Assembly: GCA_034667545.1 (NCBI GenBank)
Contig: JAXDJR010000015.1
Coordinates: forward strand, 2,850 to 66,849
Direction of reading: 5' to 3'
Source of the DNA: Actinomycetota bacterium
GTDB lineage: Bacteria; Actinomycetota; CADDZG01; WHSQ01
Length of the DNA: 64,000 nucleotides
Numbering within the stretch: the stretch's first letter is position 1; every line of letters begins with the position of its first letter. The translations under genes and the position numbers were made by a program. Shown here in pieces: positions 3,253 through 27,355 of this stretch. The notes under the pieces were generated by a model, which saw nothing but the letters and a program-made list of their open reading frames with translations, was not told the origin of the DNA and did no database searches.

Positions 3253-3269
3253 TCGTCGACGATCACAAA

Positions 3270-3884
3270 TTGTTCGCTGAAGCGATCCGCTCGAGTCTCG
3301 AAGCCCTGGGGATGGAAATCCTGGAGCTAACGCAAACCGGGGAAGAAGCGGTCGCTGCAGCACATCAGCAGCCAGACCTCGTGTTGGTAGACCTTGGTTT
3401 GCCGGATATGCACGGGGTGGAGGTTGGCAAGGCGATCCTTGCCCAATGCCCTTCTGCCACAGTGCTGGCCGTGACATCGATCATGGATCCTGCCGTGGTT
3501 CGGGAAGTTATGCGCGCGGGCTTTCATGGTTACCTCACCAAGAACACCCCGCTCGATCAATTCATCAAGTCGATCGAAGCCGCTCTCTCGGGGCAGATGG
3601 TCATCCCCCAACATCTCGCAAGCAGGGCCGCCGGACAGCGAACCAAGGAGCAGCAGGAAACCGACCTATTGGTCCGGCAGCTGACCCCTCGCGAGCTCGA
3701 GATCCTGACGTTGTTGGCTCAGGGCAAGTCGGGGGGAACGATGGCATCGGAGCTTTCGATAAGCGCGAACACCATCCGAAGCCATATCCAGAACATCCTC
3801 ACGAAGCTGCAGGTCCATTCCCGACTCGAGGCGGCCACCTTCGCAGTCAAGCACGGGATCGTGCAGGTAGAGGGGACGGGTTAA
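3270..3884 (+). CDS. LuxR/NarL-family response regulator (receiver homology extends upstream to ~3240, see findings)
   Basis: Receiver domain (DLVLVDLGLPDMHG, phospho-acceptor Asp) plus a C-terminal LuxR HTH (LTPRELEILTLLAQGKSGGTMASELSISANTIRSHIQNILTKL). The first canonical start is TTG 3270, but the in-frame IRVLIVDDH lies upstream of it. Confidence 0.85.
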   Translation: MFAEAIRSSLEALGMEILELTQTGEEAVAAAHQQPDLVLVDLGLPDMHGVEVGKAILAQCPSATVLAVTSIMDPAVVREVMRAGFHGYLTKNTPLDQFIKSIEAALSGQMVIPQHLASRAAGQRTKEQQETDLLVRQLTPRELEILTLLAQGKSGGTMASELSISANTIRSHIQNILTKLQVHSRLEAATFAVKHGIVQVEGTG

Positions 3885-4480: not shown

Positions 4481-5563
4481 TCAGCCGCCTCCCAGTTCGA
4501 CCAGCTGACGGCGCCACACCGCCGTTACGTTTCCCCAGGACATGTCTGAGTTGACGATGGCAGACCCTCTCTCCGACACCGCCGGCGCCTCCGAGGACAC
4601 CAGCCGATCCAGGCCCGCCGCGAGGCTTGCCGGAGAAGGATCGGAGAGAAACGCTCCTCCCTTCGAGGCCAGGTAACGTCCCAGAGGATAGGTCGTGGTC
4701 AGGGTGGGAACGCCAACCGAAACCGCTTCCGCCACCGAGTTGCCAAAACCCTCCCAGCGGGAGGGGTAGACAAAGCCGCTGGCAGCAGCGAGCAGGTCCC
4801 ACTTCTCCCTTCCGTACACCGGCGCTTCGATGGTGACCTCGGCCCCCAAACCGAGTCTGCCGATGAGGGCCGCGACGGCTTTCTTTCGCCCTCGCCAGTC
4901 GGGGCCGACCAGCCGCAGGATCGGCCGTGACCCCGGTCCCATCTGGGCGACGCCATGCAGGAGGAGATCAAGGCCCTTGTGCTCGGGGTCGAAACGGCCC
5001 ATCCACAGGACGTATCCGCCGCTCCCCCCATCCCAGCGCACGCCTTCGGGGGGCTCGACACCATTGGGGGCCACCAGCCACGGGCCGGTGTAGCCCAAGT
5101 TCTGCATGTCGTCGCGTTCTGAATCGAAGAACAGGTGCATCGCGCGAGCGCCTTGAACCAGGCTTCTTTCGAAAGCGACCCACCAGGCAAGCTTGAAAAG
5201 CCTCTTCCGGCGAACGATGTGGGGGTCGTAAGCACCACGCGGAGCCAGAATGTAAGGGACGTTCGCGCGTCTGGCGACCGCCCCAGCGGCGACATTGTGA
5301 ACGACCCAGGCGGAATGAAAGATGGCAAGGTCGGCTCCCTCGAAGACCTCGCGCAGCTTCAGTGGAACTCTTGCCCTCCGAACGCCGACATGATCTATCT
5401 GCTCCCAGACGACTGCGGGGTCCCGATCTCTGCTGTCACCCTCGCCAAATGCGATGGACACCTCGAGGCCAGAAGTCGCCAGGCCATGGGCCAAACGGCG
5501 CACGGCGCCGGTCATGCCCCCGTCGCCGACAACTGCGCGGGGGTAGTAGAAGACGATCCTCAT
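4481..5563 (-). CDS. Glycosyltransferase family 4 (GT-B)
   Basis: C-terminal Glycos_transf_1-like region with an EX7E-type motif (YPSRWEGFGNSVAEAVSVGVP). Confidence 0.9.
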   Translation of the reverse strand: MRIVFYYPRAVVGDGGMTGAVRRLAHGLATSGLEVSIAFGEGDSRDRDPAVVWEQIDHVGVRRARVPLKLREVFEGADLAIFHSAWVVHNVAAGAVARRANVPYILAPRGAYDPHIVRRKRLFKLAWWVAFERSLVQGARAMHLFFDSERDDMQNLGYTGPWLVAPNGVEPPEGVRWDGGSGGYVLWMGRFDPEHKGLDLLLHGVAQMGPGSRPILRLVGPDWRGRKKAVAALIGRLGLGAEVTIEAPVYGREKWDLLAAASGFVYPSRWEGFGNSVAEAVSVGVPTLTTTYPLGRYLASKGGAFLSDPSPASLAAGLDRLVSSEAPAVSERGSAIVNSDMSWGNVTAVWRRQLVELGGG

Positions 5564-6647: not shown

Positions 6648-6803
6648 TTACTTCGGATGAAGTCCGGGATGGGTAAAGCCACAACCGTGAGTTTCTATCG
6701 TTGCCTCTGCGTACAGGGTGCCACAGGGCGCGGTCATGGCAATCAACCATCCACCGTAGGTCCCTGTCACCATCCGCAGGAGGCGTCCGTCTGCTGCGCT
6801 CAT
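6648..6803 (-). CDS. Possible 51-aa coupled small ORF (hypothetical)
   Basis: Its ATG overlaps the TGA of the upstream GT4 gene (ATGA, 6800-6803). It fills most of the otherwise unexplained 197-nt GT4-to-epimerase gap. Third-position GC is only moderate and I recognise no homology. Confidence 0.3.
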   Translation of the reverse strand: MSAADGRLLRMVTGTYGGWLIAMTAPCGTLYAEATIETHGCGFTHPGLHPK

Positions 6804-7963
6804 CGGTTCGTTGTTGGTCCGCCGACGACCTTCGAGTAGACGGCCTCCAGGCGTCGCAGATGGGCCTCCGGGGTGAACTCGGCAGCTGCTCTCTCGAGCG
6901 CCGCAGAACCTGCTTCGAAGCAGAGCCGGTCGTCGGTAGCAAGCGCCTTCATCTTGGCAGCGAGGTCGTGAGGATCGCCGCGCCGGCACATGAATCCCTC
7001 GCCGGAAGAGACCAGTTCCGGCAGACCGCCGCCTTCCGTGACCAGAAGCGGTCGTCCGGCGGCCAAAGCTTCAAGGGCGGCGAGGGGAGCATTTTCGTCC
7101 CACAACGAAGGAAGGACGAAAAAGCGTGATCCCTGAAGCTCCGCCGCAACCTGGTCCCCGGCTAGCTGCCCGAGAAAGTTGGCATTCTGCAGGCCCCTTT
7201 CGGCGGCGAGGTCTTCCAAGGCGGGCAGCGCCGGTCCGTCGCCGCAGATATGAAAGGGAGGGTCCCCGGCCAGGCTTAGGGCCTCCAGCAGGACGTCGAC
7301 GCCTTTCTCGCTCGAAAGCCGACCGAGATAGATCCCGTAGGCGCCCGGCACGGCGCTTCCCGCATGATGATCGGTGAAGTTACGGACCACATCAACGCGT
7401 GATCCATCGAATCCCCAACTGATCATTCGATCGTGCATGAACTGGCTCGGAGTTATGTAGGCCGCCACCTTGTCATCGGTGTGAAACATGAATCGGTGGA
7501 CCCAGAGTGACGAGGCGTAACTCGCTGCCTGCTTTCCGTCGGAAAAGCAATGATGCAGAACCGCGTTCGAGTAGTTGCCTCCTTCGCAGCGATGGCAAAG
7601 CTTGCCTTCGGTGAACATGTAACCGTTGGGGCATCTCAACCTGCAGTTATGTACGGTCATCACCAGCGGGATACCAGCGCGTTGCGCCTCCAGATGCACG
7701 GCAGGGCCGAGGGCCGGGTACGCGTTGTGGAGATGGATGACGTCGGGGCGGAAGGATCGAATGACCCTCCGCAGATCCCCTCTGTCGTGAGAAGACGAAG
7801 CCGTCATGAGGACCGCCGTCGAAAGCCCCCCACCCAGCTCCTCGTTACGGCGACTGAACAGCTCGACCGCGTGCTTCCCCTTTAAGAGCTGGATCTGCTG
7901 CCCGACGTACCTATCCTCGCCGCCCGGCAAACGGTAGAAGCTGTGGGCTATCAAGACTCTCAC
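6800..7963 (-). CDS. Glycosyltransferase family 4 (GT-B) with Cys4 insertion
   Basis: RLSSEKGVDVLLEAL...GDGP...LPSLWDENAPLAALEALAAGRPLL is a typical Glycos_transf_1 region. The N-domain carries CX3CX11CX2C. Confidence 0.9.
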   Translation of the reverse strand: MRVLIAHSFYRLPGGEDRYVGQQIQLLKGKHAVELFSRRNEELGGGLSTAVLMTASSSHDRGDLRRVIRSFRPDVIHLHNAYPALGPAVHLEAQRAGIPLVMTVHNCRLRCPNGYMFTEGKLCHRCEGGNYSNAVLHHCFSDGKQAASYASSLWVHRFMFHTDDKVAAYITPSQFMHDRMISWGFDGSRVDVVRNFTDHHAGSAVPGAYGIYLGRLSSEKGVDVLLEALSLAGDPPFHICGDGPALPALEDLAAERGLQNANFLGQLAGDQVAAELQGSRFFVLPSLWDENAPLAALEALAAGRPLLVTEGGGLPELVSSGEGFMCRRGDPHDLAAKMKALATDDRLCFEAGSAALERAAAEFTPEAHLRRLEAVYSKVVGGPTTNR

Positions 7964-8048: not shown

Positions 8049-9737
8049 CTACTTAGGTGCCGGTAGGTCAGCCTGGGACTGGGTGTCGTCCGGATCGAGG
8101 CTCTTGCCTCCGCCTGAGGATTGCCGCGTGGTTGCCGCGCGCGTCTCTTCTCTAGTGGCGCGAGCATCACGCTTGGGCAGATCTTGGTAGTAGGAGTAGT
8201 AGCCGGCGTGGTGACGGTAGGCCCGGGCACGAGACTTCTCCAGGTTGTTGATCACGATGCCGATACGGCGGGCTTGCAGTTGGTCCAGCTGCTCGCGAAC
8301 GTCGTCGGCAGCGGCACGAGTAGACACCGCAGGGTCCACCACGAGCAAAACACCGTCGCTGTGCGGAAGAAGAGAGGCAGTGTCGGCAACCAGCAGGATG
8401 GGGGCCGCGTCCACGATCACGAAATCACTCCGATCACGCAAGTTATCCAGCACTTTCCCCATCGCCTCGGATCCGATGAGCTCTGCTGCATTGTCACGTG
8501 CGCCGCCGCTGAACAGGATCTGCAACTCGTCGATAGAGGAGGGCACTAGCGCGCGGTCGATAGTTGTCTGACCGGTCAGAACCGTCGCAAGTCCGATCGG
8601 AGAGGAGCCTCCGAAGAACTCGTGCAGCCTCGGCTTGCGCAGGTCGGCAGAGAGCAGCGTGACTCGTTTCCCGGCTTGAGCGAGAGCCACAGCCAGGTTC
8701 GCTGCGGTAGTCGTCTTGCCTTCCCCTTCGAATGCACTCGTGACCAAGATCACCTTGGCACCGGTGCGGGATGCCGCGAAGAGCACCCCCGCGCGAAGGG
8801 TCCGATAGGCATCAGCAGCAACCGACTGAGGCATCGATGACGAGAGCAGCACCGGAACACCACGTCCTTGCGAGCCGCGTACTTTTGGAACTACGGCCAG
8901 CACCGAGGCTCCGGCGTGAGCTTGCAACTCTGCCCGGTCCGTGAAGTGCTCGTCCAGACGCTCCCGGAGGAACGCGACCCCTATGCCGAGGGCGAACCCT
9001 ACGAGCACCGCCAGCAGCATGTTCTTGATGAGGCTGGGGCTCGAAGGTGCGGACGGCAGCTCGGCAGGCGTCGTGATATTGCCTACCTGAACGCTGCTGG
9101 CGGGAGTGATGTTGGCGATCTGCCCCTGGAGGAGAGTCTTCCTGTCGCGGAGCGAGTTCTCCTTGTTGTTAAGACTCGCCAGGATTGCCGGATCCGTTGT
9201 GCTAGTGATCTGGTTGGTGACATTTTGAATCTGCGAGTAGAGACGCTTCACGCGCAACTGCAACGGTTGGATCACCGTCTGGACGGTCTGGACCGCCTGT
9301 TGGGTGCGGTACTGAAGGTACGCGGTCGCGAACCCCGCAGCGATCTGCTGGGCCTCAGCAGCCTTCGGTGAGGAATAGGAGATCTGAAGGATCTCGGTGT
9401 TGGTGGGCACCGTGACCGCAAGATTCTGCAACAGCGTCTTGGTGCTCTCCTGTAGCGAAAGATCCTTCAGGACGAGGGAAGCCACGGTCGCAGAAGAAAC
9501 TAGGTTCTTCTCGGTGTCCATGTTGGGGGGTACCGGCTGTCCCTGTTGGATAGCCGTCAAGGAAAACGGTTGCACTTCGACTTGCGCCTGAGACGTATAG
9601 ATCGGGGTTTGCTGGAACGTGAACGCCAGAGCCGACAGGATGACGACTGCAGCGATAGCGAGGACGGACCACTTGCGGTATCTCAGAACCTGTAGGTAGT
9701 CGTTCAGATCGCTACCGGCGCCACCTGCTGAACTCAT
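8049..9737 (-). CDS. Polysaccharide co-polymerase / tyrosine autokinase (Wzz domain fused to CpsD/Wzc-like BY-kinase)
   Basis: Two TM segments flank a long coiled periplasm-like Wzz region. Walker A is EGEGKTTTAANLAVALAQAG and Walker B is FVIVDAAP. A C-terminal tyrosine cluster reads YRHHAGYYSYY. Confidence 0.9.
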   Translation of the reverse strand: MSSAGGAGSDLNDYLQVLRYRKWSVLAIAAVVILSALAFTFQQTPIYTSQAQVEVQPFSLTAIQQGQPVPPNMDTEKNLVSSATVASLVLKDLSLQESTKTLLQNLAVTVPTNTEILQISYSSPKAAEAQQIAAGFATAYLQYRTQQAVQTVQTVIQPLQLRVKRLYSQIQNVTNQITSTTDPAILASLNNKENSLRDRKTLLQGQIANITPASSVQVGNITTPAELPSAPSSPSLIKNMLLAVLVGFALGIGVAFLRERLDEHFTDRAELQAHAGASVLAVVPKVRGSQGRGVPVLLSSSMPQSVAADAYRTLRAGVLFAASRTGAKVILVTSAFEGEGKTTTAANLAVALAQAGKRVTLLSADLRKPRLHEFFGGSSPIGLATVLTGQTTIDRALVPSSIDELQILFSGGARDNAAELIGSEAMGKVLDNLRDRSDFVIVDAAPILLVADTASLLPHSDGVLLVVDPAVSTRAAADDVREQLDQLQARRIGIVINNLEKSRARAYRHHAGYYSYYQDLPKRDARATREETRAATTRQSSGGGKSLDPDDTQSQADLPAPK

Positions 9738-10023: not shown

Positions 10024-11100
10024 TCAGACGGGAGGGGGAGCCTTCTTTCGCCCGGGCCAGGGTCTCCGCAGAGCGAAGGCGAGGCGGGCGAGCATGGGCC
10101 CCGGGTCCGACAGGGACTCGTAGCTGTGGATGGTTCCCCGGTGGGGGGCAAGGGCACGGACCGCGGCCCCCGCATCCATCCGTCCCTGTCGAAGGTTCGT
10201 GAGCACGCTGCGAAAATCGCCTTCCATCCACCGGAAGAATCTTCCAGGACGACCCCTCACGGTCGCGACGGCCCCGCCGGTGACGAGGCGGCAATACGAG
10301 GCGGGGAGGTTCACGCCTGCGCCCAACGCCAACGGGAGCGTCCCGTGGACGCGGGGATTCAGGTCGAGCAGATAGTCGCCTGCGAACTCGGCGTGAAAGA
10401 TGCCGTTGTATCCGGCCAGCAATCTCAACAGTCCCGCTTCCGTGTCCTCATCGGGGGAAACGGTGACTGCGGAGGCAGTCGTTCCGCAGGGCATGGGCCA
10501 CACGCGCACGTAGTCCAGATGCACTGCTGCCCTCAATTCCCCCTCCCACATGAGCCCGACAACCGCCCGCAATCTGTCAGAGAGGTAGGGCTGGACGATC
10601 ACCGGACCTTCTTCCTTCAAGGCCTTGGGAAGCTGAGCCGCCGAGTCCACCCGCGCGGCCGAATACCTCTTGAGGGCGGGCTTGATCACCACCGGGTAGT
10701 CGAGCTGGTGGGCGGCTGAAAGAAGCTCGCCGGTAGATCCGAAGGTCTGACTGGGGGGAACCGACAGACCCGCCGCTACGGCGGCCTTGGCACATTCGAC
10801 CTTGTCCATGAGGTGCCTGACCGGAAACTTGAGGGCGACGAGAGCAACATCACTAGTGGGGATGATGGCGGCGTACGAGCCTCTGTCGAACTCCTCCATC
10901 ACCGCTTCGGGATAACCGTCGGTCCCCGCGTAGGGGACGTTAATGCGGGCTGCGCAGAATCGCGACGCTGCAGCCATCGACAACGAACCAGAGACGGTGA
11001 CGGTGGGCTTCCACCCATCGGAAGCCAACGCGCGCACGGTGGATACGGTGCCCCGGGACTGACCGCTCCCTCCGTGGGTCACGAGAACTCGCCTAGACAC
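10024..11100 (-). CDS. ATP-grasp domain protein (carboxylate-amine/thiol ligase-like)
   Basis: The pre-ATP-grasp N-domain is followed by YPVVIKPALKRYSAARV and PVIVQPYL blocks typical of ATP-grasp enzymes. The GTG start overlaps the upstream ORF stop by 8 nt. Confidence 0.8.
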   Translation of the reverse strand: MSRRVLVTHGGSGQSRGTVSTVRALASDGWKPTVTVSGSLSMAAASRFCAARINVPYAGTDGYPEAVMEEFDRGSYAAIIPTSDVALVALKFPVRHLMDKVECAKAAVAAGLSVPPSQTFGSTGELLSAAHQLDYPVVIKPALKRYSAARVDSAAQLPKALKEEGPVIVQPYLSDRLRAVVGLMWEGELRAAVHLDYVRVWPMPCGTTASAVTVSPDEDTEAGLLRLLAGYNGIFHAEFAGDYLLDLNPRVHGTLPLALGAGVNLPASYCRLVTGGAVATVRGRPGRFFRWMEGDFRSVLTNLRQGRMDAGAAVRALAPHRGTIHSYESLSDPGPMLARLAFALRRPWPGRKKAPPPV

Positions 11101-11911
11101 GGCCTTCGGCCTCCATACCGTGCATCTCGTGCGTCTCGGCTACTTTCGCCAGCCACGCCGCCCGGTTCTCAGGGATCTTGCGGCGCGTGCCCAAGATCGC
11201 TTTGACTATCGGACAGCTGGACTTCGTTTCGAACCGGAATCTCGCTCGCCGCGCCAGGATGACGGGATTGCGGATGCCTTTTACGACGAACCATCCATCG
11301 ACGAGCGCCATAGCACTTGGCTCCCAGCGAGACTCTGCAGCTGCACGCGCCCCTTTAATGACGGCATCTTTGACCGGACCAAAGAGCCGCGCCGCCATCT
11401 CGACGCCGGCGGGATCGGCGGCCAGCAACTCTCTTATGTTCTTTTCCTCGATGCCCTCCCAGTTCGGACGACCGCCCCATTTGGTGCCGTTGAGGACCAG
11501 CTTGAAAAGGCCCTCGGCCCCCGGCCGCAGCCGGCGGAAGCCCCGCTGATCCATCTCGGAGAGGCCCTCTAGGTCCTCAATCACGAACAAGGTCGAGCCC
11601 CGGAAAATGCGCCTCTCTTTCACGCTCATCTCGAGGAATGCTGCCGCCCCCTGTGGAAAGGCAACCAGGTTGAGCCCTCCGGGGATGTGGCGGCAGACCG
11701 CCGCGGGCCCCAACCTCTCGCGCAAAGCCCAGTCCAGGAATTCGTTCTCGATGCTGTTCCACTGCGCCGAGGGTGCTGCCGAATCGACATCCCCTACGCC
11801 TGAAAGTGCGGAGTCGACGTTCTTCCACACCAGCCACTCATCCGACACCGTGCTCAAGGTGCGCAGCAAAGGAAGCCAGGGCGAGGAGGGTGTTTCGAGT
11901 GAGCCTTCCAC
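11093..11911 (-). CDS. Hypothetical protein, weak nucleotidyltransferase-like GxGDxD signature
   Basis: 272-aa ORF with coding-like composition, translationally coupled to the ATP-grasp gene (GTGTCTAG overlap). The only recognisable element is LSGVGDVDSAAP. Confidence 0.6.
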   Translation of the reverse strand: MEGSLETPSSPWLPLLRTLSTVSDEWLVWKNVDSALSGVGDVDSAAPSAQWNSIENEFLDWALRERLGPAAVCRHIPGGLNLVAFPQGAAAFLEMSVKERRIFRGSTLFVIEDLEGLSEMDQRGFRRLRPGAEGLFKLVLNGTKWGGRPNWEGIEEKNIRELLAADPAGVEMAARLFGPVKDAVIKGARAAAESRWEPSAMALVDGWFVVKGIRNPVILARRARFRFETKSSCPIVKAILGTRRKIPENRAAWLAKVAETHEMHGMEAEGRV

Positions 11912-12080
11912 GCGTATCCTCCTTGGGCTGTATCGACCGGCTTTTGCGGCTCCATCCGCAGCGCGAACGAGCCCCGCTCCGGGAGGAACGGCAGCACTAG
12001 GATACGAGTGAATCAGAGCCGCCTCTTAGCCCCCCACTTGCTAAGACGAGCGCTGACATCGCTAGGAGGTTTCAACACCC

Positions 12081-12899
12081 ATGATCGATACCCAGGTCCT
12101 TCGCCGGGCGCGGTTCCGAAGCAAGATCTTGCGACGCCCCACGGTTTGGGCCAGGCACCGTGGGATACAGCGACACGATGCGATCTTGGCGAGCTATCCG
12201 CGATCGGGCACTACGTGGATGCGATTCCTCCTCTCTCAGGCCTTGTCGGGCCAATCCTCCGAGTTCAAAGCGATCAGAGGAATCGTTCCGTACGTGGGCC
12301 GGCACAGGCACGCGCTATCGATCCTGCCCGGAGGCGGCAAGCTTATGTACAGCCACGATCTGCTTAGCAAAGACGTCACCGACAGGGCCATCTACGTGGT
12401 GAGGGACGCGCGCGATGTTGCCCTTTCGGAATTCAACTGGCAGAAGCGCATCGGGGTCTACGAAGGCGAGCTCGATCCGTTCTTAAGAGACTTCGTGTCG
12501 GGTCGGGGAAGCCCGTTCGGTTCGTGGGGGGCTCATGTCGACGGCTGGTTTGACGCCGATCGGATCGCCGATGATCGTCTGAAGGTTGTGAAGTTCGAAG
12601 ACCTCAAGAAGGACGCGCCCGGCGTTCTGGCATCCGTACTCTCGTTCCTGCGCGTGACGGTGCCCGAGGCTGAGATCGCCCAAGTGGTGGAGAGCAATTC
12701 GGTCGAGATGATGCGTCAGAAAGAGGATCGCGCGCCAGAGGGCTCCTTCAAGAAGCGAGTGGTCAAACGGAATGTTCGCTTCGTGAATGCGGGGTCCGTG
12801 GGTAAATGGCAGAGAAACCTGAACCCCACCCAAGAACAGCTCATCGAAGAAGCCTTCGGATCGCAATTGCAGCGGCTCGGCTATGCGCTTCACTCGTAG
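12081..12899 (+). CDS. PAPS-dependent sulfotransferase (Sulfotransfer_1-like)
   Basis: 5'-PSB loop YPRSGTTWMRFLL and 3'-PB motif YVVRDARDVALSEF. Confidence 0.85.
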   Translation: MIDTQVLRRARFRSKILRRPTVWARHRGIQRHDAILASYPRSGTTWMRFLLSQALSGQSSEFKAIRGIVPYVGRHRHALSILPGGGKLMYSHDLLSKDVTDRAIYVVRDARDVALSEFNWQKRIGVYEGELDPFLRDFVSGRGSPFGSWGAHVDGWFDADRIADDRLKVVKFEDLKKDAPGVLASVLSFLRVTVPEAEIAQVVESNSVEMMRQKEDRAPEGSFKKRVVKRNVRFVNAGSVGKWQRNLNPTQEQLIEEAFGSQLQRLGYALHS

Positions 12900-12910
12900 C
12901 GCCCGTATGG

Positions 12911-13528
12911 ATGACCACTAGCTCCTCGGCGGGCCGAGTGATTGCGGTACTCGGGCCCGACGGCAGTGGGAAGTCGACGTTCGCCGATGCTCTTGTCGCG
13001 GGGCCTCTCAACCGAGAGACCATCCTTCGCTTGCATCACAGGCCGGGGGCGGTCGTTTCCAAGAGCCCGAGCGAGGCCCCCGTTACAGAGCCCCATGCCG
13101 GCGACCCCTACCCCCGGACCCTTGCCCTAGCCAAGCTCGTATTCCTCTTCCTCGACTTCCAGATCGGGTGGTGGACCCGGATCAAACCATTCGTACGGCG
13201 GGGGGGATGGGTTGTCTGGGAGCGGCCTTGGTGGGACATCTCCATCGACCCCACCCGCTACCGGCTGCAAGGTTCGGAGCGCGCCGCGCGCGTGCTGGGT
13301 GCTGCGTTGCCGGTTCCCGATCTAGTCATCGTGCTCGAGGCGCCCGTCGACGTGCTCCTCGCGCGCAAGCGCGAAGTCTCGGAGGCCGAACTGGAGAGGC
13401 AAACGCACGAGTTACACCACGTCGTGCCGGCAAAGGTCCGAACGGTGTTCCTGGACTCTCGCGAGCCCATACCCACCCTGCTGCAACAAGCGACGGAAGA
13501 GCTGGAGAGCCTTCGGAGCGAGGATTGA
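12911..13528 (+). CDS. Thymidylate-kinase-like P-loop kinase
   Basis: N-terminal Walker A VLGPDGSGKST. The later blocks VVWERPWWDISI and PDLVIVLEAPVDVLLARKRE resemble the dTMP-kinase/nucleotide-kinase fold. ATG 12911 lies 12 nt after the sulfotransferase stop. Confidence 0.7.
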   Translation: MTTSSSAGRVIAVLGPDGSGKSTFADALVAGPLNRETILRLHHRPGAVVSKSPSEAPVTEPHAGDPYPRTLALAKLVFLFLDFQIGWWTRIKPFVRRGGWVVWERPWWDISIDPTRYRLQGSERAARVLGAALPVPDLVIVLEAPVDVLLARKREVSEAELERQTHELHHVVPAKVRTVFLDSREPIPTLLQQATEELESLRSED

Positions 13529-13614
13529 GAGGCAAGACGCGATGGGCCCCCATCCCTCCAGCGTCATCGCGATGGCTGCTGCCGACGACGCCGCGCCGGG
13601 CCGCCACCAATAGC

Positions 13615-14478
13615 GTGCACATCTATCACCCCGTGACGATCAAAGGACTCTTGGGATGGGAAGCCGCGCGTGCGGTTGCGTCGGTGGGCGGGTTCAGATT
13701 GCTTCCCGGCCGCGGCGCAGTCCCTGCGGAAGTGACCGAGCTCCTCCGGGCCAACGGGCTGGCATACCGATCGCTTGCCGTGGCCCGGGCCAACCACCCT
13801 TCCCGATTCCTTGCGCTGCTACTGGGCGAATCCTTGGCCTGTACAGGGGTAGCCAAGATGGCATTCGACGACAAGGGACGTCACGCCCTAGCCAGGGAGG
13901 CGCAAGCGATCGAGGCAGCAACAGCCGTGCTGCCTGCGCCCGTGCGGCCGCCTCTCGTTCGTGCTGCAGCCGATGGATTGCTCCTGCTGGAGCCGGTGGC
14001 GTGGTTGCCGCGCATCACCTCGTGGCGTCTTCCCGGAGAAGTCGCTTATGGATTGGGGGTGTACTCGAGGATGAAGGGAGCCGGTGGCCAGGGTGCCACC
14101 GCAGCCCACGGTGACTTTGCTCCGTGGAACCTCCTGCGGACCGAGGGTGGATGGGTGTTGCTGGATTGGGAGCATGCGTCCGAGTCCAAACCTCCTTTCT
14201 TCGACCTGTGGCACTACTTCATGCAAGCTCATTCGCTACTGGGACGTCCCAACGCGCGAGCACTCGTGGACGGCGTGAGGAAGGGGGACGGCTGGGTTGG
14301 GATCGCTCTGGCGCAATATGCGCGCGGCAGTCAGAGGTCTCCCGCGGAGGCAGTCGATTATTTCGATGACTACATCAGGGCAAGCGCCGAACAACTCGCG
14401 GGAAGGAGCCAGCGGGAACAGCACGGGCTGACGGCGCGAACCGAACTACAGCGTCAGATCACACGTGGACAAGAATGA
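13615..14478 (+). CDS. Aminoglycoside-phosphotransferase (APH)/choline-kinase-like phosphotransferase
   Basis: Catalytic loop HGDFAPWNLL, metal-binding LLDWEHA, and a candidate beta3 lysine in GVAKMAF. The start is uncertain (GTG 13615 chosen). The upstream part of the 436-aa track ORF overlaps the previous gene. Confidence 0.7.
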   Translation: MHIYHPVTIKGLLGWEAARAVASVGGFRLLPGRGAVPAEVTELLRANGLAYRSLAVARANHPSRFLALLLGESLACTGVAKMAFDDKGRHALAREAQAIEAATAVLPAPVRPPLVRAAADGLLLLEPVAWLPRITSWRLPGEVAYGLGVYSRMKGAGGQGATAAHGDFAPWNLLRTEGGWVLLDWEHASESKPPFFDLWHYFMQAHSLLGRPNARALVDGVRKGDGWVGIALAQYARGSQRSPAEAVDYFDDYIRASAEQLAGRSQREQHGLTARTELQRQITRGQE

Positions 14479-14649: not shown

Positions 14650-16212
14650 GTGGACGAAACCCCGGGAGTAGAAGACCTAACGCAGGAATCCGCCGCCGAT
14701 GTCGCGACTCTGGCCAAAGGCGGGGCCCTGCAGATGGTTGGTCGCGTCAGCTCTCGCATCCTTGGCTTCGCGTTCATCGCCGTTGCAGTACGGATCTTGG
14801 GGACCAGCAGATATGGGCTGTTCCGAGAGGTCACGCAGGTCCTGTTGATCGCCGCCGCGCTGGCCCCCGGTGGGTTCCAGTTCGCAGCCGTTCGATTCAT
14901 CGCCCGAGCACGCGCGTTGCACCGGCCGGGGGCCGTGCGAGGGTCGGCGACCGTCGCGGTATGGGGCGGGGCAACTGTCTCCACCTTGGTCTTTATCGGC
15001 CTGCTCATATTGGCTCAGCCGATCGCGGATCACTTTGCATCAGGCGCCACGAAGCAAACGGACTTGGCGCATCTCTTGCGGCTGGGGGCACTGTTCGTGC
15101 CGCTCTACTCGATGACTCTGGTGCTCCTTTACTGCACGCAGGGTTACAGAACGCTGGTTCCGACCACGACGGTGAACGATGTGGGATTGCCGGCGGCGCG
15201 CTTCGCCCTGGGAACCATCGCGATCCTGGTAGGGCTCGAGGTTGCGGGATTGGTGGTTGCCCTCGACGTGTCGGCGGCACTGGCTCTGCTCGGAGCGTTG
15301 TGGTTCTACAGAAAGCTCCTCACCGAGGAGGAGAAAGTGGCGACGCCGGAGCGCGAAGTGGGGCCGATCGTGAGATTCGCTCTCCTGTTGGGGGCCTCCA
15401 ACCTATTCAGCACCCAATCGCTGGGGCTCGGCATCATCCTGCTCGGGATCTATTCGACCGATCGCAACGTCGGTTTGTTCGCGATCGCCCTCGCATTGCA
15501 AGCAGCGGGCGGTGTCTTTCTGCAAAGTCTGGTCGGGATCTGGGCTCCAGTCGTGACCAAGGTTTACGAAGAGGGGGACATCGCGCGCTTGCAGTCTCTT
15601 TACCAAGCGATCACGCGATGGATCGTGACGCTGGCCTTCCCCGTATACGCAGCGTTGATGGTGCTCCCGGGCTTCTTCGGTCGTTTGCTGGCCGGTCACA
15701 ATGGAGCCGACGCCGCTCCCCTGATCGTGGTTCTTGCGCTTGGAAATATCTTTTACGCCGGGACGGGACCCTCGGGCCACATCCTGAACATGACGGGGCG
15801 ACCTCGCGTCACGCTCATCAACTCGATCACGGCCGTCATCCTCTACATCATTCTGGGCGCGATCCTGGTGCCGCGCTATGGGGCGATAGCCATGGCAGGA
15901 GTCGACGCCGGAATCACCGCGGCGATCAACCTCACCGTTGTGTTGGAGGGACGCATCCTCGTCGGCGTCCACCCCTTTGGGAAGTCCTTCCTCAAACCGT
16001 TGGGCGCAACGGTGGTCTTTGCCCTATTCCTGTTGTTGTGGAGAACCGTCCTTGGCACGGGACTCGCCGTCGAGGGGGCCGGGTTGGTCGTCGGGGTGAT
16101 CATCTACCTGGGGATCCTGGCGAAGCTGGGGATGGACCCAGAGGAACGGTACGTGTTTGGGCGGATCAAACAGCGGATCCCCTTCCTCGCCCGGCGAGGC
16201 AGAGGTCGCTGA
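14650..16212 (+). CDS. wzx: Oligosaccharide/polysaccharide flippase (MOP superfamily, Wzx-like)
   Basis: 520-aa protein with about 12-14 TM helices. The N-terminal LAKGGALQMVGRVSSRILGFAFIAVAVRILGTSRYGLF is typical of polysaccharide biosynthesis (Wzx) proteins. Confidence 0.85.
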   Translation: MDETPGVEDLTQESAADVATLAKGGALQMVGRVSSRILGFAFIAVAVRILGTSRYGLFREVTQVLLIAAALAPGGFQFAAVRFIARARALHRPGAVRGSATVAVWGGATVSTLVFIGLLILAQPIADHFASGATKQTDLAHLLRLGALFVPLYSMTLVLLYCTQGYRTLVPTTTVNDVGLPAARFALGTIAILVGLEVAGLVVALDVSAALALLGALWFYRKLLTEEEKVATPEREVGPIVRFALLLGASNLFSTQSLGLGIILLGIYSTDRNVGLFAIALALQAAGGVFLQSLVGIWAPVVTKVYEEGDIARLQSLYQAITRWIVTLAFPVYAALMVLPGFFGRLLAGHNGADAAPLIVVLALGNIFYAGTGPSGHILNMTGRPRVTLINSITAVILYIILGAILVPRYGAIAMAGVDAGITAAINLTVVLEGRILVGVHPFGKSFLKPLGATVVFALFLLLWRTVLGTGLAVEGAGLVVGVIIYLGILAKLGMDPEERYVFGRIKQRIPFLARRGRGR

Positions 16213-16422: not shown

Positions 16423-17925
16423 ATGCTTAGTTCCTCACAAGGGTCCTGGTACCGAAGGACCTTGCCGGGCGTTAATCCGGCGCGGGCCGCGGGAAACGCG
16501 GTGATCGCGATGACGGCATTGGGAGCCGGTGTCGGCATCGCTCTGGGAAGTAAGTGGGGGCTGGCGATCGCCGGAATCTCCCTCTTGTTCGCAGCGGCGA
16601 GCGTGGGCTTGTTCCAACTCACCATCCCTCGGTACGCGTTCGGGTACATGGCTATCGAACTACCGGCGATATTCATCTTGATAGCAAGTCTTGGTCTTCG
16701 GGCACGCACAGCGGAGGACCTCGCGGCCAATCCGTTGGACTTCGTCGGCTTGCTGCGCCTTGCCAGCACGGGAATCGCTTTCATGCTGGGGGCCATCGCG
16801 TGCATCTCCGCGACGCGCGATACGACCGAGACCGTGACGAACAGGCCGCTGCGCATCTATATCTGTTACGCGCTCGTGGCCTCGATCGGGATCTTTGCCT
16901 CCGTGAGCCCGGCCCTCACGGGTTACCGCGCCTTCGAGGTGATCGCCGCGATCGTGATGATCGCAGGCGCTTACCGAACCGCCGGGAAAGAAGCTTTGCT
17001 TCGCCTGGAAGGGTTGCTCTATTGGTGGATACTGATCCTCGTTGGCACCGTCTGGGTTGGAGTGGCAGCGTTCCCAGCCCTGACCGTCCAGCACATCAAC
17101 AGTCCGATCCCATACCAGATCCAAGGCGTCTATCCGGGGGTCACCTCCAACACGCTCGGCGAGCTGGCCGTCCTGCTGATCTTTTGGTCTGTGGGCCGGT
17201 TGCTGGCACCCGGGGTCGAGAGGGGCCCCAGGCGTCCGGTTGCGTGGGCGGTCGCGGCCTTTGGATTCATCACGTTGATGGGGGCCCAGTATCGAACTGG
17301 TTACGCGGCCGTGATGCTTGGATTTGCGATATTGCTGTTCCTGCGCGGCCGCAAAGTCCTTGCCGGGTTCGGCGTCATCGTGGTGGCTGTCGGGACCATC
17401 ATCGGATCGAGAGTCGCGACGCAAGCTGCGCCGCTTCTCTTGCGGGGGCAGAATAGCTCGCAGGTCAGCAACTTGAATGGACGTCTGAACTGGTGGGAGC
17501 TCGCCATCCCGATCTGGAAGAAATCCCCCATCATCGGAGGTGGCCTTCGTACCGCCAGCCGGCTGCTCGTCTTGGGACAGTCAGGCTTCCAGAACACCAG
17601 CACCGTCCACAGCACGTGGGTGGAAGCGCTCGTCGGGACGGGAGTGCTTGGAACTGCCGCCCTTGCCATCTTTCTGATGATTACGATGCGCCGGGCTTTC
17701 CTGACTGCGCTGCGACCGTACGGAAGGATCGTCCCCCTTCTCGCCCTCAGCACGCTTGCGGTGAGGAGCTTCACTGGGGATACCTTCGAGAGCGGTGGTC
17801 TTTACTGCTTGCTCACGCTGGTGTTCGTGATGGGTCTACGGGATCAGTACTTCGTTCGACCGAGGGCGTCAACCCGCATCAGCTCATCCGGTCACGCCGA
17901 GCGTGTTCCCGTGGGAGTCGACTAA
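16423..17925 (+). CDS. wzy: O-antigen ligase/polymerase family membrane protein (Wzy-like)
   Basis: 500-aa polytopic membrane protein. A Wzy_C-like block (STVHSTWVEALVGTGVLGTAALAIFL) follows a large loop. Confidence 0.8.
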   Translation: MLSSSQGSWYRRTLPGVNPARAAGNAVIAMTALGAGVGIALGSKWGLAIAGISLLFAAASVGLFQLTIPRYAFGYMAIELPAIFILIASLGLRARTAEDLAANPLDFVGLLRLASTGIAFMLGAIACISATRDTTETVTNRPLRIYICYALVASIGIFASVSPALTGYRAFEVIAAIVMIAGAYRTAGKEALLRLEGLLYWWILILVGTVWVGVAAFPALTVQHINSPIPYQIQGVYPGVTSNTLGELAVLLIFWSVGRLLAPGVERGPRRPVAWAVAAFGFITLMGAQYRTGYAAVMLGFAILLFLRGRKVLAGFGVIVVAVGTIIGSRVATQAAPLLLRGQNSSQVSNLNGRLNWWELAIPIWKKSPIIGGGLRTASRLLVLGQSGFQNTSTVHSTWVEALVGTGVLGTAALAIFLMITMRRAFLTALRPYGRIVPLLALSTLAVRSFTGDTFESGGLYCLLTLVFVMGLRDQYFVRPRASTRISSSGHAERVPVGVD

Positions 17926-17936
17926 CCGAGTAAAGA

Positions 17937-18827
17937 TCAGGCGATGTTCCAGCCGTCGAAGTCGTTTCCCAGTAGGACCCGCAGCCGTCGAATGTCCGAT
18001 GAGAACTCTGCTTCCAGTTCGGCGCGCAGAGAATCCGGGATAACCGCCTCGGAAGATTCGTAGACGCTCTGCGCGGGCTTGCCCAACATCTGTTTGACCC
18101 GATTGGGAACCAGGCGAGGGATCTTGACAGTAGAGAACACGCGCTTCTTGAACCAGCGACGGCTGTTCCCTACCCAGGCCGGATAGGCCAAGCGCCGCTC
18201 AGATGTAAAGAACTCCTGCTCCAGCACCTCGGACTTCCAATCAGCGCGCACGCCGAGGAAGGAGTAGACGCGCTCGAGAGTTTGTACTCGAGTCGAGCGC
18301 AAAGCCTCCGAAGTGATGATGAGCATCTGATCGGTGCGGAAATGCGAAAGATATTGATCCAGCTGCATCGCGTACTTGCTGAAGTTGATGTAGTCGGGAT
18401 TCGTTTGGACCGCCTGAGCTAGGGGCGCGGTTTCGGTGCCGAAGGCCACGTTGTGAACGTAGTGAGAGCGAAGGCGATCTATCGGATTGCGCACCACGTA
18501 TATGAGGCGCGCCTCGGGAAGATAGCGCGCGATGAGCTCTGCAGAACCTGAATAGCGGGGAAACTTGGTGTAGCTGGTTGAGGCCTCACCTACTGCGGCT
18601 ACCCCGGGACCGGCGTCGGCAAAGAGGCGCTGATACCAGGCGAAACCTCGCTCCCAGTTGATGCCGGCGGTGAAGAAGTCCAGCTCTTTGATGTCGGGCA
18701 TGAAGACCTGCGGATGCGACCGCAGATATTCGTAGAGGCTCGTGGTTCCCGACTTCTGAGCGCCAATAACGAGAAAGTCGGGAAGCCGGAGCTTGCCTGT
18801 AGGTGTTGGATAGTCCGAGGGGCTCAC
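17937..18827 (-). CDS. PAPS-dependent sulfotransferase
   Basis: 5'-PSB FLVIGAQKSGTTSLYEYL and 3'-PB YVVRNPIDRLRSHY. The GTG start overlaps the stop of the upstream sulfotransferase (GTGA). Confidence 0.85.
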   Translation of the reverse strand: MSPSDYPTPTGKLRLPDFLVIGAQKSGTTSLYEYLRSHPQVFMPDIKELDFFTAGINWERGFAWYQRLFADAGPGVAAVGEASTSYTKFPRYSGSAELIARYLPEARLIYVVRNPIDRLRSHYVHNVAFGTETAPLAQAVQTNPDYINFSKYAMQLDQYLSHFRTDQMLIITSEALRSTRVQTLERVYSFLGVRADWKSEVLEQEFFTSERRLAYPAWVGNSRRWFKKRVFSTVKIPRLVPNRVKQMLGKPAQSVYESSEAVIPDSLRAELEAEFSSDIRRLRVLLGNDFDGWNIA

Positions 18828-19855
18828 TCAGAACCGTCGCTTGGCGAACTTTCCGACAGAGAGCGGAGATGGTTTCCCGCCTTACGAGTTGCCAGCGAGT
18901 AGCGCAACATCAGCGGCAGCGTCAACGAAGTCACGAGCAGCTTGTCTCGTCCGGGCATCTCGTCCTTCCATCTGTTGTCCTCACGAACCGGCACCTGACC
19001 AAGCCGGAACCGATCTGGGTTGCCGGACACAGTGTGGTTGCCGCCGAGGCTAACCGTGTGATCGTCGGCAAAAGGCAGTTGCGCGCCTGCATCGCCGACC
19101 AGGGATGTGATTGCGCGAACCAACTCACGGGGACGCGAGCAGAAATCGTGGTAATCGATCAGCATCGAGCGATCTGGTCTCTGAGCTCTGCGAACAGCAT
19201 CCGCCGCGAGATTTCGGCGGATCCATTGAAACGCACTGGCCGAGATCCCGGTGGGTGCCATAACCGCAGGCTGGTTGCGGTCCGGGTTGGCTTTCACCTT
19301 CGATTGCGAGTAAGCCATGGCGCGAGGATCACGTACGAGGTGGACGAAGAATGGTTCGACGTTGCGGACCGAGCCCAACAAAGCTGCGTCCCAGGGGCGC
19401 TTGGAAGAATCCACGATGACCGAGGCTCCAGTCACTGCTTTGATCGCCTCATACAGATCGCCCATCAGTGCACCGTGAGCTTGTATCTGTCCGGGAACAT
19501 TGTCCTTAGTTGTCTGATGGAGGAGCTGCCACGTACGCCAAGTCCCCGAGATCTGCCTCTGACGTGCCATGACAGCCCGGGCCGTTGCAGAGGGCTCTGA
19601 GCCGGCAACCTTGTCGAGGACACGGGACCAGATCTCACAACTCTCGAACGACTTCCCACACCCGCAGAATCGTCCTTGGTCGAGCCGCTGCCACAGAAAA
19701 CGAAGCTCTCCCGCGGAAAAGAACCCTGCGACCTCGTTCAGGACGTTGTCCAGCACTGTGCTGCCGCAGCGGGGGGCGCCCATGATGTAAAGCACTGTGA
19801 TCGGCTCATCCCGCGCCGGGGACGCGGCCGAAGCGTGGGGGTTGGGTCCGTCCAT
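18824..19855 (-). CDS. Sulfotransferase family protein (Sulfotransfer_3-like)
   Basis: P-loop-like 5'-PSB LYIMGAPRCGSTVLDNVL and 3'-PB HLVRDPRAMAYS. Confidence 0.8.
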   Translation of the reverse strand: MDGPNPHASAASPARDEPITVLYIMGAPRCGSTVLDNVLNEVAGFFSAGELRFLWQRLDQGRFCGCGKSFESCEIWSRVLDKVAGSEPSATARAVMARQRQISGTWRTWQLLHQTTKDNVPGQIQAHGALMGDLYEAIKAVTGASVIVDSSKRPWDAALLGSVRNVEPFFVHLVRDPRAMAYSQSKVKANPDRNQPAVMAPTGISASAFQWIRRNLAADAVRRAQRPDRSMLIDYHDFCSRPRELVRAITSLVGDAGAQLPFADDHTVSLGGNHTVSGNPDRFRLGQVPVREDNRWKDEMPGRDKLLVTSLTLPLMLRYSLATRKAGNHLRSLSESSPSDGSE

Positions 19856-26018: not shown

Positions 26019-26134
26019 AAACCACTCCCAAACGGGTAAAGCAGCTCAAGCAAGCTGCTCATTCAAGTTAGGCGCTCGACTTGCCGATAGCACTGCCCCG
26101 ACGTCGTATTCGGCCTACTCCAAACGTACGACGT

Positions 26135-27256: not shown

Positions 27257-27355
27257 CCTCTCCCCGCTCTCTCCGGGCTTGTGCTCTCTAAAGGTGTCCC
27301 CCTTCAGAAGGTGACCACTCACAATAAGCTGGGCGCCATCGAGAAGAATGCTGAG

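Follow-up and report, generated by a model that had tools for sequence, protein, structure and literature searches.

A recurring, often fused enzyme cassette with a GT4 glycosyltransferase partner in bacterial surface-polysaccharide loci

Introduction

The Lic pathway comprises the kinase LicA, the cytidylyltransferase LicC and the transferase LicD, which, like fukutin and FKRP, is a phospho-alcohol transferase; there, a kinase of the APH/choline-kinase fold and a Pol-beta-fold transferase put a phosphodiester-linked group on glycan hydroxyls. WbdD, the terminating kinase of the E. coli O9a O antigen, works alongside GT4 mannosyltransferases and puts a phosphate on a sugar of the glycan; the protein also contains a methyltransferase domain and a coiled coil, and it is part of an ABC-transporter pathway. 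Among aminoglycoside-modifying enzymes, the ANT and APH classes both act on sugar hydroxyls, and ANT enzymes join a Pol-beta-fold N-terminal domain to a helical C-terminal domain. PAPS synthase unites ATP sulfurylase with APS kinase, and CoA synthase unites PPAT with dephospho-CoA kinase. Cj1415–Cj1418 of Campylobacter jejuni are four enzymes, one of them a nucleotidyltransferase and another a P-loop kinase. This four-enzyme set makes an activated donor for O-methyl phosphoramidate decoration of the capsule, CDP-phosphoramidate 3'-phosphate, from glutamine, ATP and CTP (PMC11800397), and Cj1438 ties a glycosyltransferase to a fused ATP-grasp amidoligase that amidates capsule glucuronate (PMC11800379).

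Here we describe a cassette of four enzyme genes, A, B, D and E, together with a GT4 glycosyltransferase gene, G, that has not been described before, is often fused and recurs in surface-polysaccharide loci. As in Campylobacter, several enzymes would act in the cytoplasm to decorate a surface polysaccharide at the expense of ATP and NTP, but we found no sequence relationship between the two systems. Here B has a Pol-beta fold, D is Tmk-like and export is Wzx/Wzy-dependent, whereas the Campylobacter capsule enzymes belong to families other than those of B and D. The ATP-grasp enzymes differ in type as well, A being ATPgrasp_Ter/COG3919 and Cj1438C TupA-like (PMC11800379).

Organization of the locus

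We analyzed a 64,000-nucleotide stretch of DNA from an Actinomycetota bacterium (the window), in which a polysaccharide locus at approximately 4.4–25.3 kb encodes Wzc, Wzx, Wzy, GT4 glycosyltransferases, a WecG-family glycosyltransferase and a Bac_transf priming transferase. The original prediction had singled out five genes, A–E, in two divergent units between wzc and wzx. All five open reading frames are intact and on the strands it gave, with A and B on (−) and C, D and E on (+), and coding in these frames is backed by third-position GC. The flanking genes do encode a Wzc-like protein with Wzz and ParA-type matches and a Polysacc_synt flippase. The features, in window positions, are as follows.

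4481–5563, (−): G, 360 aa GT4 glycosyltransferase, outside the region first singled out
8049–9737, (−): Wzc-like chain-length/BY-kinase protein with Wzz and AAA_31/ParA/CbiA matches
10024–11100, (−): A, 358 aa ATP-grasp ligase
11093–11911, (−): B, 272 aa Pol-beta-fold nucleotidyltransferase-like protein
11912–12080: intergenic region between B and C, 169 bp, read from the sequence
12081–12899, (+): C, 272 aa PAPS-type sulfotransferase
12911–13528, (+): D, 205 aa thymidylate-kinase-like P-loop kinase
13525–14478, (+): E, 317 aa APH/eukaryotic-like small-molecule kinase, start corrected to TTG
14650–16212, (+): Wzx flippase, Polysacc_synt match
16423–17925, (+): Wzy-type polymerase, Wzy_C match

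The 8-nt overlap of A and B (11093–11100) was correctly described, whereas the gap between C and D, given as 12 nt, measures 11 nt (12900–12910). The divergent region had been called a 169-bp shared promoter region; its length stands, but its role as a promoter is conjectural, and a scan of 11912–12080 with the sigma-70 consensus, which is uninformative for the host phylum, gave no match. The start proposed for E at GTG 13615 is wrong because approximately 30 residues upstream of that codon (RWxLPxxPR...IYHPVTxKGLxGW) are conserved in all homologs. The in-frame start at TTG 13525 overlaps the TGA stop codon of D (13526–13528), so that the two genes are translationally coupled. The NCBI call for this protein (P0121, 317 aa) has the same length as the re-started E and is 100% identical to it.

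Recurrence and natural fusions

Our census comprises 36 related loci, all from uncultured MAGs, in Actinomycetota, Chloroflexota, Gemmatimonadota, Dormibacterota, Methylomirabilota and Acidobacteriota. The carriers of the cassette are uncultured soil bacteria of at least six phyla. Related loci are nearly always Wzx/Wzy polysaccharide loci like that of the window, and the neighbors found across them include a flippase, Wzy, Wzc, Bac_transf, WecG, UDP-sugar dehydrogenase and SDR epimerases. Seventeen unique loci extend 5 kb or more to both sides of B; of these, 16 have G, 13 have D, 12 have A, nine have an E-like kinase and none has a sulfotransferase.

G completes the conserved cassette as its fifth member, and in the window it sits 4.5 kb away from the genes first flagged. 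It matches Glyco_trans_1_4, Glycos_transf_1 and Glyco_trans_4_4 in Pfam; GT4 enzymes of 26 related loci are 48–57% identical to it across phyla, and its homologs lie less than 300 bp from B in 16 of the 36 unique loci. Each of G, B and A is approximately 43–57% identical among Actinomycetota, Chloroflexota and Gemmatimonadota, which implies that the substrate is conserved and is not a glycan that varies between strains.

Three loci (L019, L029 and L039) have all five genes as a single operon in the order G–B–D–E–A. The genes are not obligatorily together, however, since L006 and L007 carry G and B alone within 10 kb and L004 carries B and A alone, outside any obvious polysaccharide locus. The E-like kinases of several loci score 56–147 bits against the E profile, and such low-scoring sequences may not be orthologous to E.

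D and E form one open reading frame in L019, L020, L029 and L039 and in approximately 25 of 73 E-family clusters. Further fusions join G to B (P0200, 651 aa), B to D (P0203, P0211, P0263 and P0336), D to B (P0219), B to D and E (P0247, P0261 and P0331) and, in P0217, D, B, D and E. The A family has 147 clusters; the 120 that were listed show no fusions. Fusion of B and D, in either order, would couple nucleotidyl transfer and P-loop kinase steps on one intermediate, as in PAPS synthase and CoA synthase, although both halves of those enzymes differ from B and D in fold and family.

Enzymes of the cassette

B belongs to a small family (293 representatives at 50% identity among 1.84 billion) and has no Pfam, NCBIfam or PDB-sequence match. 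Its AF2 model is confident (pLDDT 92.7) and shows an alpha/beta domain at the N terminus and a helical one at the C terminus, and in a Foldseek search of the model every top match is a Pol-beta superfamily nucleotidyltransferase, all of them weak, with TM at most 0.36 and E at least 0.01 (best match 4p37, E 0.017, prob 0.99, TM 0.35). A GDxD motif is invariant in 49 aligned homologs, the invariant residues being K30, G40, D41, D43, E94, K98 and R126, and WKN stands where the canonical hG[GS] motif is expected. The motif and the superfamily matches bear out the original, cautious assignment of B as a Pol-beta-type nucleotidyltransferase, and the model points to a new family of nucleotidyltransferase-like proteins with this fold.

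The two-part architecture of B is shared with ANT enzymes, but no ANT structure is among its best 50 fold matches, and the context of the cassette is biosynthetic rather than one of resistance. The likeness to the Lic pathway is also limited. B has no match to Pfam LicD at E up to 1, and a LicD protein ranks only 31 (E 0.32) in a viral fold search; D and A have no Lic counterparts, and the cassette has no LicC-type cytidylyltransferase. The usual sugar-phosphate cytidylyl/nucleotidylyl-transferase that a LicD-like route would require was not found among the annotated recurrent neighbor families, which counts against such a route.

Single-sequence matches for the two kinases fall below the Pfam cut-offs (Thymidylate_kin 1e-4 for D, which is also below the Tmk family cut-offs, and APH 2e-4 for E), but both of the labels first given to them hold. 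The D profile aligns over its full length with thymidylate kinases (3lv8, E 1.2e-9), with neither APS kinase nor dephospho-CoA kinase among its best 60 PDB matches. Its motifs are a P-loop, GPDGxGK, an ER aligned to the Tmk DR motif and a short RKxE lid. The AF2 model of E (pLDDT 92.9) has the APH/eukaryotic-like kinase fold, with Foldseek matches at E 1.5e-5 to 6e-4 to methylthioribose kinase, corramycin phosphotransferase, Rio2, macrolide 2'-phosphotransferase, APH(2''), WbdD and choline kinase. These include sugar-hydroxyl kinases (methylthioribose kinase and macrolide 2'-phosphotransferase) as well as an O-antigen terminal kinase. Residues K111, E125, H195-G196-D197, N202 and D214 are invariant. 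Similarity to WbdD is weak, with E 0.19 by sequence profile and 1.8e-4 by fold, and instead of a methyltransferase domain or a coiled coil E has, in its fused forms, a Tmk-like domain.

A on its own matches ATPgrasp_Ter at 4e-6, under the Pfam cut-off. A profile of 19 homologs secures the original ATP-grasp label: it matches carbamoyl-phosphate synthetase in its ATP-grasp domain (E 2e-9), and its further matches include 2pn1, an L-amino-acid ligase, RimK and cyanophycin synthetase. A is 46–57% identical to genes adjoining B in other phyla. There is no UDP-sugar dehydrogenase in the window, and a uronic-acid target for A therefore lacks local support.

Proposed function and alternatives

From the observed gene content, folds, catalytic motifs, co-occurrence, fusions and polysaccharide context, we infer the substrates, order of steps and type of decoration set out here. 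The cassette probably decorates the sugar chain with a phosphate-based group, and putative phosphorylation and amide or ester attachment on the repeat unit can reasonably be inferred. We lean toward the view that the window holds a split copy of the conserved G/B/D/E/A cassette, decorating the residue that G installs with phosphate-based chemistry. The cassette would act in the cytoplasm within the Wzx/Wzy pathway, ahead of flipping by Wzx. G would place one particular residue on the lipid-linked repeat unit, and B, D and E, in a physical complex with G, would build a phosphate-based substituent on this residue or its precursor. In this second step, E would phosphorylate a hydroxyl, D would act on a phosphate-bearing or nucleotide-like intermediate, and B would move a nucleotidyl or phospho-alcohol group onto a hydroxyl in the manner of ANT- or LicD-type enzymes. 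A would finally add an amide- or ester-linked group in an ATP-dependent reaction.

A conceivable but doubtful alternative is donor synthesis by salvage, in which E is an anomeric sugar kinase, B turns the sugar-1-phosphate into an NDP-sugar for transfer by G, the nucleotide comes from D and the sugar is modified by A, so that one unusual activated sugar is made and used and the finished glycan is not tailored. Methylthioribose kinase, one of the top structural neighbors of E, is an anomeric-hydroxyl kinase, the Tmk-like character of D is nucleotide-directed, and the G+B fusion and the adjacency of G and B would tie a donor-making enzyme to its transferase; the high cross-phylum identity of all members also suits small conserved substrates. 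D would, however, be redundant with a housekeeping NMP kinase, and the free-sugar substrate is conjectural. Pol-beta-fold enzymes characteristically use hydroxyl rather than phosphate nucleophiles, and known sugar-1-phosphate nucleotidylyltransferases have a Rossmann-like and not a Pol-beta fold. We consider it very unlikely that E is a protein kinase and B a GlnE/GlnD-type protein nucleotidyltransferase that control G or the export machinery. Protein AMPylators and UMPylators do occur among Pol-beta-fold enzymes, Rio2 and other protein kinases are among the fold matches of E, and fusion to G could reflect regulation, but the fold neighbors of E are mostly small-molecule or sugar kinases, the fusions carry no sensor domains, and a switch would hardly need four enzymes that use ATP or NTP, a Tmk-like kinase and an ATP-grasp ligase among them. 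Some lasso-peptide clusters combine a kinase, a nucleotidyltransferase and a sulfotransferase, and G has weak Pfam matches that conflict with GT4; that these are lasso/RiPP tailoring or anti-phage defense genes, in a glycan locus by chance, is nevertheless scarcely credible. No RiPP precursor, cyclase or protease is present among the scanned genes of the window locus or the annotated recurrent neighbor families, PADLOC defense models gave trivial P-loop matches alone, and the polysaccharide setting is steady across phyla. The gene neighborhoods effectively exclude this reading, and the Wzx/Wzy genes in the window and related loci vindicate the original choice of glycan over peptide tailoring.

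The original prediction further held that 10024–14478, sulfotransferase included, is one co-inherited module that sulfates, phosphorylates and amino-acylates the repeat unit, which now appears unlikely. C is a sulfotransferase, as had been proposed (Sulfotransfer_1, 7e-29, 101 bits), two more sulfotransferases (ST2 and ST3) lie downstream in the window locus, the genes are contiguous and tightly spaced, with C and D only 11 nt apart, and the C–D–E order is kept in a close relative, L042. Across 42 loci, however, a homolog of C was found only in the near-identical L042 (81% identity), and ST2 and ST3 likewise have no homologs in any related locus but this one. The absence of the sulfotransferase elsewhere contradicts a conserved five-gene unit at 10024–14478: A, B, D and E recur without C, ST2 or ST3, and they do so with G, which lies outside that region. 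Because homologs of all three sulfotransferases are confined to L042, sulfation is a lineage-specific addition outside the conserved chemistry, and by this distribution C, ST2 and ST3 are independent additions of this lineage only.

Organization of the five-gene block

Between a Wzz+ParA-type Wzc-like gene on one side and a Polysacc_synt flippase gene on the other, we find five open reading frames whose coding is supported by third-position GC:

10024-11100, minus strand, A, ATP-grasp protein, 358 aa
11093-11911, minus strand, B, Pol-beta-fold nucleotidyltransferase (NTase)-like protein, 272 aa
12081-12899, plus strand, C, sulfotransferase, 272 aa
12911-13528, plus strand, D, thymidylate-kinase-like P-loop kinase, 205 aa
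13525-14478, plus strand, TTG start, E, APH/eukaryotic-like kinase, 317 aa

A shares 8 nt with B, the divergent genes B and C stand 169 bp apart, and the gap between C and D is 11 nt rather than the 12 nt first reported. The original prediction had the five reading frames, their strands, the overlap, the divergent spacing and the flanking genes right, but it placed the start of E at GTG 13615. We assign the start to TTG 13525, which overlaps the TGA stop of D, because the roughly 30 residues upstream of GTG 13615 are kept in every homologue and because a 317-aa protein called in the public annotation of an identical contig (P0121) agrees with it. Two other candidate calls were rejected. For a D start at ATG 12806 (240 aa), the in-frame GC3 climbs only past ~12900 and homologues align from 12911; for a minus-strand frame at 13888-14232 picked by a crude gene caller, E homologues span the same stretch on the plus strand. 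A scan of the region between B and C for the sigma-70 consensus, which is uninformative for this phylum, gave no match, so the shared promoter proposed there stays putative.

A conserved set of genes travels with B

By tblastn and profile-HMM searches we looked for partner genes near B at 36 unique loci encoding a B homologue, all from metagenome-assembled genomes (MAGs) of Actinomycetota (including Acidimicrobiia and Euzebyales), Chloroflexota, Gemmatimonadota, Dormibacterota, Methylomirabilota and Acidobacteriota. The partners of B across these loci are A, D, E and a particular GT4 glycosyltransferase, whose copy in the window lies outside the five-gene block:

4481-5563, minus strand, G, GT4 glycosyltransferase

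G shares 48-57% identity with its counterparts across phyla; for the other GT4 of the window (6800-7963) the value is mostly ~30-35%, the usual level for GT4 enzymes.

Presence of partner genes at the 17 loci with at least 5 kb on either side of B
G (GT4 glycosyltransferase): 16/17
A (ATP-grasp protein): 12/17
D (thymidylate-kinase-like kinase): 13/17
E-like kinase: 9/17
Sulfotransferase homologue: 0/17

After G, A is the commonest immediate neighbour of B. Eight loci have the full complement of partners G, A, D and E, and in some MAGs the genes form a single operon in the order G-B-D-E-A (L019, L029 and L039). C had been predicted to form one unit with the other four genes of the block. Its homologues, and those of the other two sulfotransferases in the window, turned up only at L042, which is closely related to the window, and the conserved set is instead G, B, D, E and A. 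Judged by this gene content, C is a lineage-specific insertion and the sulfation genes of the window form a separate, lineage-specific layer.

Smaller sets also occur. At L006 and L007, G and B are the only cassette genes within 10 kb. In a Chloroflexia MAG (L004:10001-12028, on a contig shared with L026), B and A are convergent among unrelated genes for a pantoate transferase, DinB and uncharacterised proteins; G, D and E are all missing from the surrounding 10 kb, and the pair, being outside any obvious glycan locus, breaks with the usual polysaccharide context. A Gemmatimonadaceae MAG has a SAM-dependent methyltransferase gene between B and A (L002:10841-11794 and L003:5220-6167), which could provide a methylated form of the decoration.

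Fusions and duplications of cassette genes

D and E form one reading frame at L019, L020, L029 and L039, and such D+E frames (510-548 aa) make up about one third of E-family clusters. Further fusions are found in the B family.

Fusions involving B
G+B: P0200
B+D: P0203, P0211, P0263, P0336
D+B: P0219
B+D+E: P0247, P0261, P0331
D+B+D+E: P0217

The fact that these fusions recur in differing orders is strong evidence that G, B, D and E work on a single molecule, one soon after another. No fusion of A was seen among the 120 best clusters listed.

B is also duplicated in tandem in several Actinomycetota and Gemmatimonadales MAGs (L029:9156-10765, L030:938-2550, L031:600-2212, L027:1515-2869 and L038/L039). 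At L038 and L039 the B-D pair is doubled, giving B-D-B-D-E-A with the first D joined to the second B. These duplications suggest paralogues of differing specificity.

B is a putative new branch of the Pol-beta nucleotidyltransferase fold

In single-sequence scans, B matched no Pfam family at E-values up to 1 and no NCBIfam family, and its profile matched nothing among PDB sequences at E-values up to 10. This family is well conserved; it has 275 clusters when grouped at 90% identity and, in a set of 1.84 billion proteins, 293 representatives at 50% identity. The AF2 model of B is confident (pLDDT 92.7), and of the 50 best PDB fold matches listed, 49 belong to the Pol-beta superfamily, all of them weak (best match E-value 0.017, prob 0.99, TM 0.35). 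They include giant-virus poly(A) polymerases, TUTases, Cid1, OAS1, Pol beta/lambda and CCA enzymes, with TM of at most 0.36; a search of viral models in BFVD again gave weak poly(A)-polymerase-like matches and added nothing. The earlier suggestion of a Pol-beta-type NTase, drawn from a GVGDVD motif, is thus upheld by a confident model and by matches that are weak but nearly all within that superfamily.

Seven residues are invariant in 49 B sequences: G40, D41, D43, E94, K30, K98 and R126. The first three lie within the GVGDVD motif. In the alignment and predicted model, D41 and D43 stand at the start of strand 42-45 and E94 lies in strand 93-98. In place of the canonical hG[GS] motif B has W29-K30-N31, with W29 also invariant and N31 conserved in at least 90% of sequences; a short helix and G38/G40 come next. 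From the fold matches, the invariant GDxD/E94 set and the WKN variant, we predict that B represents a new, atypical branch of the Pol-beta NTase fold in which WKN replaces hG[GS]. A LicD-type assignment finds no counterpart, as the LicD family profile (PF04991) did not match B and a LicD protein appeared only at rank 31 (E-value 0.32) in the viral fold search. In addition, C73, C233 and H261 are invariant and H75 is conserved in at least 90% of sequences; these residues are split between the N- and C-terminal halves and could form a structural metal site joining two domains.

Folds of the remaining cassette proteins

In single-sequence Pfam and NCBIfam scans only C exceeded family cut-offs, matching Sulfotransfer_1 at 101.4 bits (cut-off 22) as a PAPS-dependent sulfotransferase; the other folds were therefore settled by profiles and predicted structures. 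These agree with the fold guesses originally made for A, D and E. Profile positions 98-284 of A match the ATP-grasp domain of carbamoyl-phosphate synthetase with an E-value of 2e-9, with further matches to 2pn1, an L-amino-acid ligase, RimK and cyanophycin synthetase, and the single sequence of A scores 27.1 against ATPgrasp_Ter, just under the cut-off of 29.1.

D aligns over its full length (profile positions 5-200) with residues 26-230 of thymidylate kinase 3lv8 at an E-value of 1.2e-9. It falls far under the family cut-offs (22.4 bits versus 27 for Pfam PF02223; 22.5 versus 83.25 for TIGR00041), so it is not a housekeeping thymidylate kinase. Its conserved elements are the P-loop GPDGxGK, E-R105, the equivalent of the Tmk DR motif, and R152-K-x-E155, and its lid is short. 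We considered D as an APS-kinase analogue feeding PAPS to C and rejected this role, since the profile matches thymidylate kinases, with no APS kinase among the 60 best PDB matches listed, and D also recurs without sulfotransferases.

The AF2 model of E (pLDDT 92.9) has a bilobal kinase fold, with 75 PDB matches at E-values of at most 0.001 and prob 1.00 in all 50 listed. In fold space it lies next to methylthioribose kinase, corramycin and macrolide phosphotransferases, APH(2''), Rio2, WbdD and choline kinase. Across 44 E sequences H195, G196, D197, N202, D214, W215, K111 and E125 do not vary, and the HxDxxxxN loop, the metal-binding Asp of the DxE/DFG equivalent, the beta3 Lys and the alphaC Glu are all present. 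The window copy scores 21.4 against Pfam APH (cut-off 23.2), and most of its relatives have a precomputed PF01636 match.

The cassette lies in a Wzx/Wzy-type polysaccharide locus

The polysaccharide locus of the window extends from ~4.4 to 25.3 kb. It begins with G, an SDR epimerase gene, the second GT4 gene and wzc, followed by A and B on one strand and C, D and E on the opposite strand; beyond these come wzx, wzy, two sulfotransferase genes, a DUF4012 protein gene, a WecG-family glycosyltransferase gene and a Bac_transf priming transferase gene. The Polysacc_synt, Wzy_C, Wzz+ParA, Bac_transf and WecG matches, together with the two GT4s, identify it as Wzx/Wzy-dependent. Genes past wzy include:

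17937-18827, minus strand, sulfotransferase
18824-19855, minus strand, sulfotransferase, overlapping the preceding gene by 4 nt
20102-22891, plus strand, 929-aa DUF4012-domain protein

The two sulfotransferases (Sulfotransfer_1/Sulfotransfer_3) bring the number in the locus to three, suggestive of a heavily sulfated polymer.

The gene classes at related loci are the same, and frequent additions there are a UDP-sugar dehydrogenase, a polysaccharide deacetylase, a PF04199 cyclase and a beta-helix protein. Of the recurrent neighbour families sought in the window (UDP-sugar dehydrogenase, PF04199 cyclase, polysaccharide deacetylase and others), only Bac_transf was found, so a local uronic-acid target for A is unsupported. 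The preference for glycan over peptide tailoring in the original prediction holds in this setting: we saw no RiPP or lasso precursor, macrolactam synthetase/cyclase or leader protease among the Pfam-scanned window genes at 150-36812, nor any RiPP or lasso genes in the annotated neighbourhoods of related loci that were looked up. A PADLOC search gave no matches for G, A, B or E and only trivial P-loop matches for D (E-values of at least 5e-4), indicating no defence-system relationship.

A proposed phosphate-based decoration pathway

We interpret the cassette as a polysaccharide decoration pathway centred on the new NTase-fold family B. That a glycosyltransferase, an NTase-fold protein and two different kinase folds are repeatedly fused speaks for a single series of coupled reactions. 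A, B, D and E are ATP or NTP users and none has a membrane segment; since they need cytoplasmic ATP or NTP, they would act before the Wzx flippase. We infer the substrates and the order of steps as follows, in what we regard as the most economical model. G would add one conserved residue, and a complex of B, D and E would put a phosphate-based group on that residue or its precursor. Within this complex, E would phosphorylate a hydroxyl, and B would transfer a nucleotidyl or phospho-alcohol group onto a hydroxyl; the Tmk-type ER motif and arginine-rich conserved positions of D suggest that it may work on a phosphate-bearing or nucleotide-like intermediate. A would join a carboxylate and an amine.

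In the main rival explanation, E and B would supply G with an NDP-sugar donor, which is consistent with the G+B fusion and with the resemblance of E to methylthioribose kinase. Such a route would also need a type of reaction, with a phosphate nucleophile, that is not known for Pol-beta-fold enzymes. The logic of the decoration pathway itself has precedents in the Lic phosphocholine pathway, in WbdD and in bifunctional NTase-kinase enzymes (PAPS synthase and CoA synthase). In the Campylobacter capsule, Cj1415-Cj1418 produce CDP-phosphoramidate 3'-phosphate (PMC11800397), and Cj1438 is a glycosyltransferase fused with an ATP-grasp amidoligase (PMC11800379). None of these systems shows homology to the cassette beyond the fold level. 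We also entertain, as a rather unlikely extension, that G-B-D-E(-A) is a self-contained line for a decoration undescribed in bacteria and common to soil Actinomycetota, Chloroflexota, Gemmatimonadota and other phyla, such as a nucleotidylated or pyrophosphate-linked sugar, with the ELK kinase, the Tmk-like kinase and B acting in sequence on the residue of a dedicated GT4.

Surface charge, recognition by phages and the immune system, and soil aggregation all depend on polysaccharide decorations, and to our knowledge the pathways that make them have mostly been described in a small number of pathogens. The cassette spans uncultured bacteria of six or more phyla, and family B has no Pfam, NCBIfam or PDB entry. 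Our literature searches for the gene combination found no description of it, and the CA_C2195 neighbourhood (PMC4000134) is a different system. Identifying the product would show what several hundred 'hypothetical proteins' do, and it could expose new phosphate-based glycan chemistry.

Genes flanking the locus

Outside the locus lie two-component regulators, followed by housekeeping genes:

988-1464, minus strand, and 1660-3884, plus strand, regulators comprising a BldD-like HTH protein and a histidine kinase with a LuxR-type response regulator
25329-27751, second LuxR-type response regulator, PAS histidine kinase and lone receiver domain
32504-35230, minus strand, pyruvate phosphate dikinase/PEP synthase-type gene

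LuxR/GerE regulators also lie beside the cassette at L001 and L017. The dikinase-type gene (PPDK_N, PEP-utilizers, PEP-utilizers_C) sits in housekeeping surroundings ~7 kb past the locus and is probably unrelated to the cassette.
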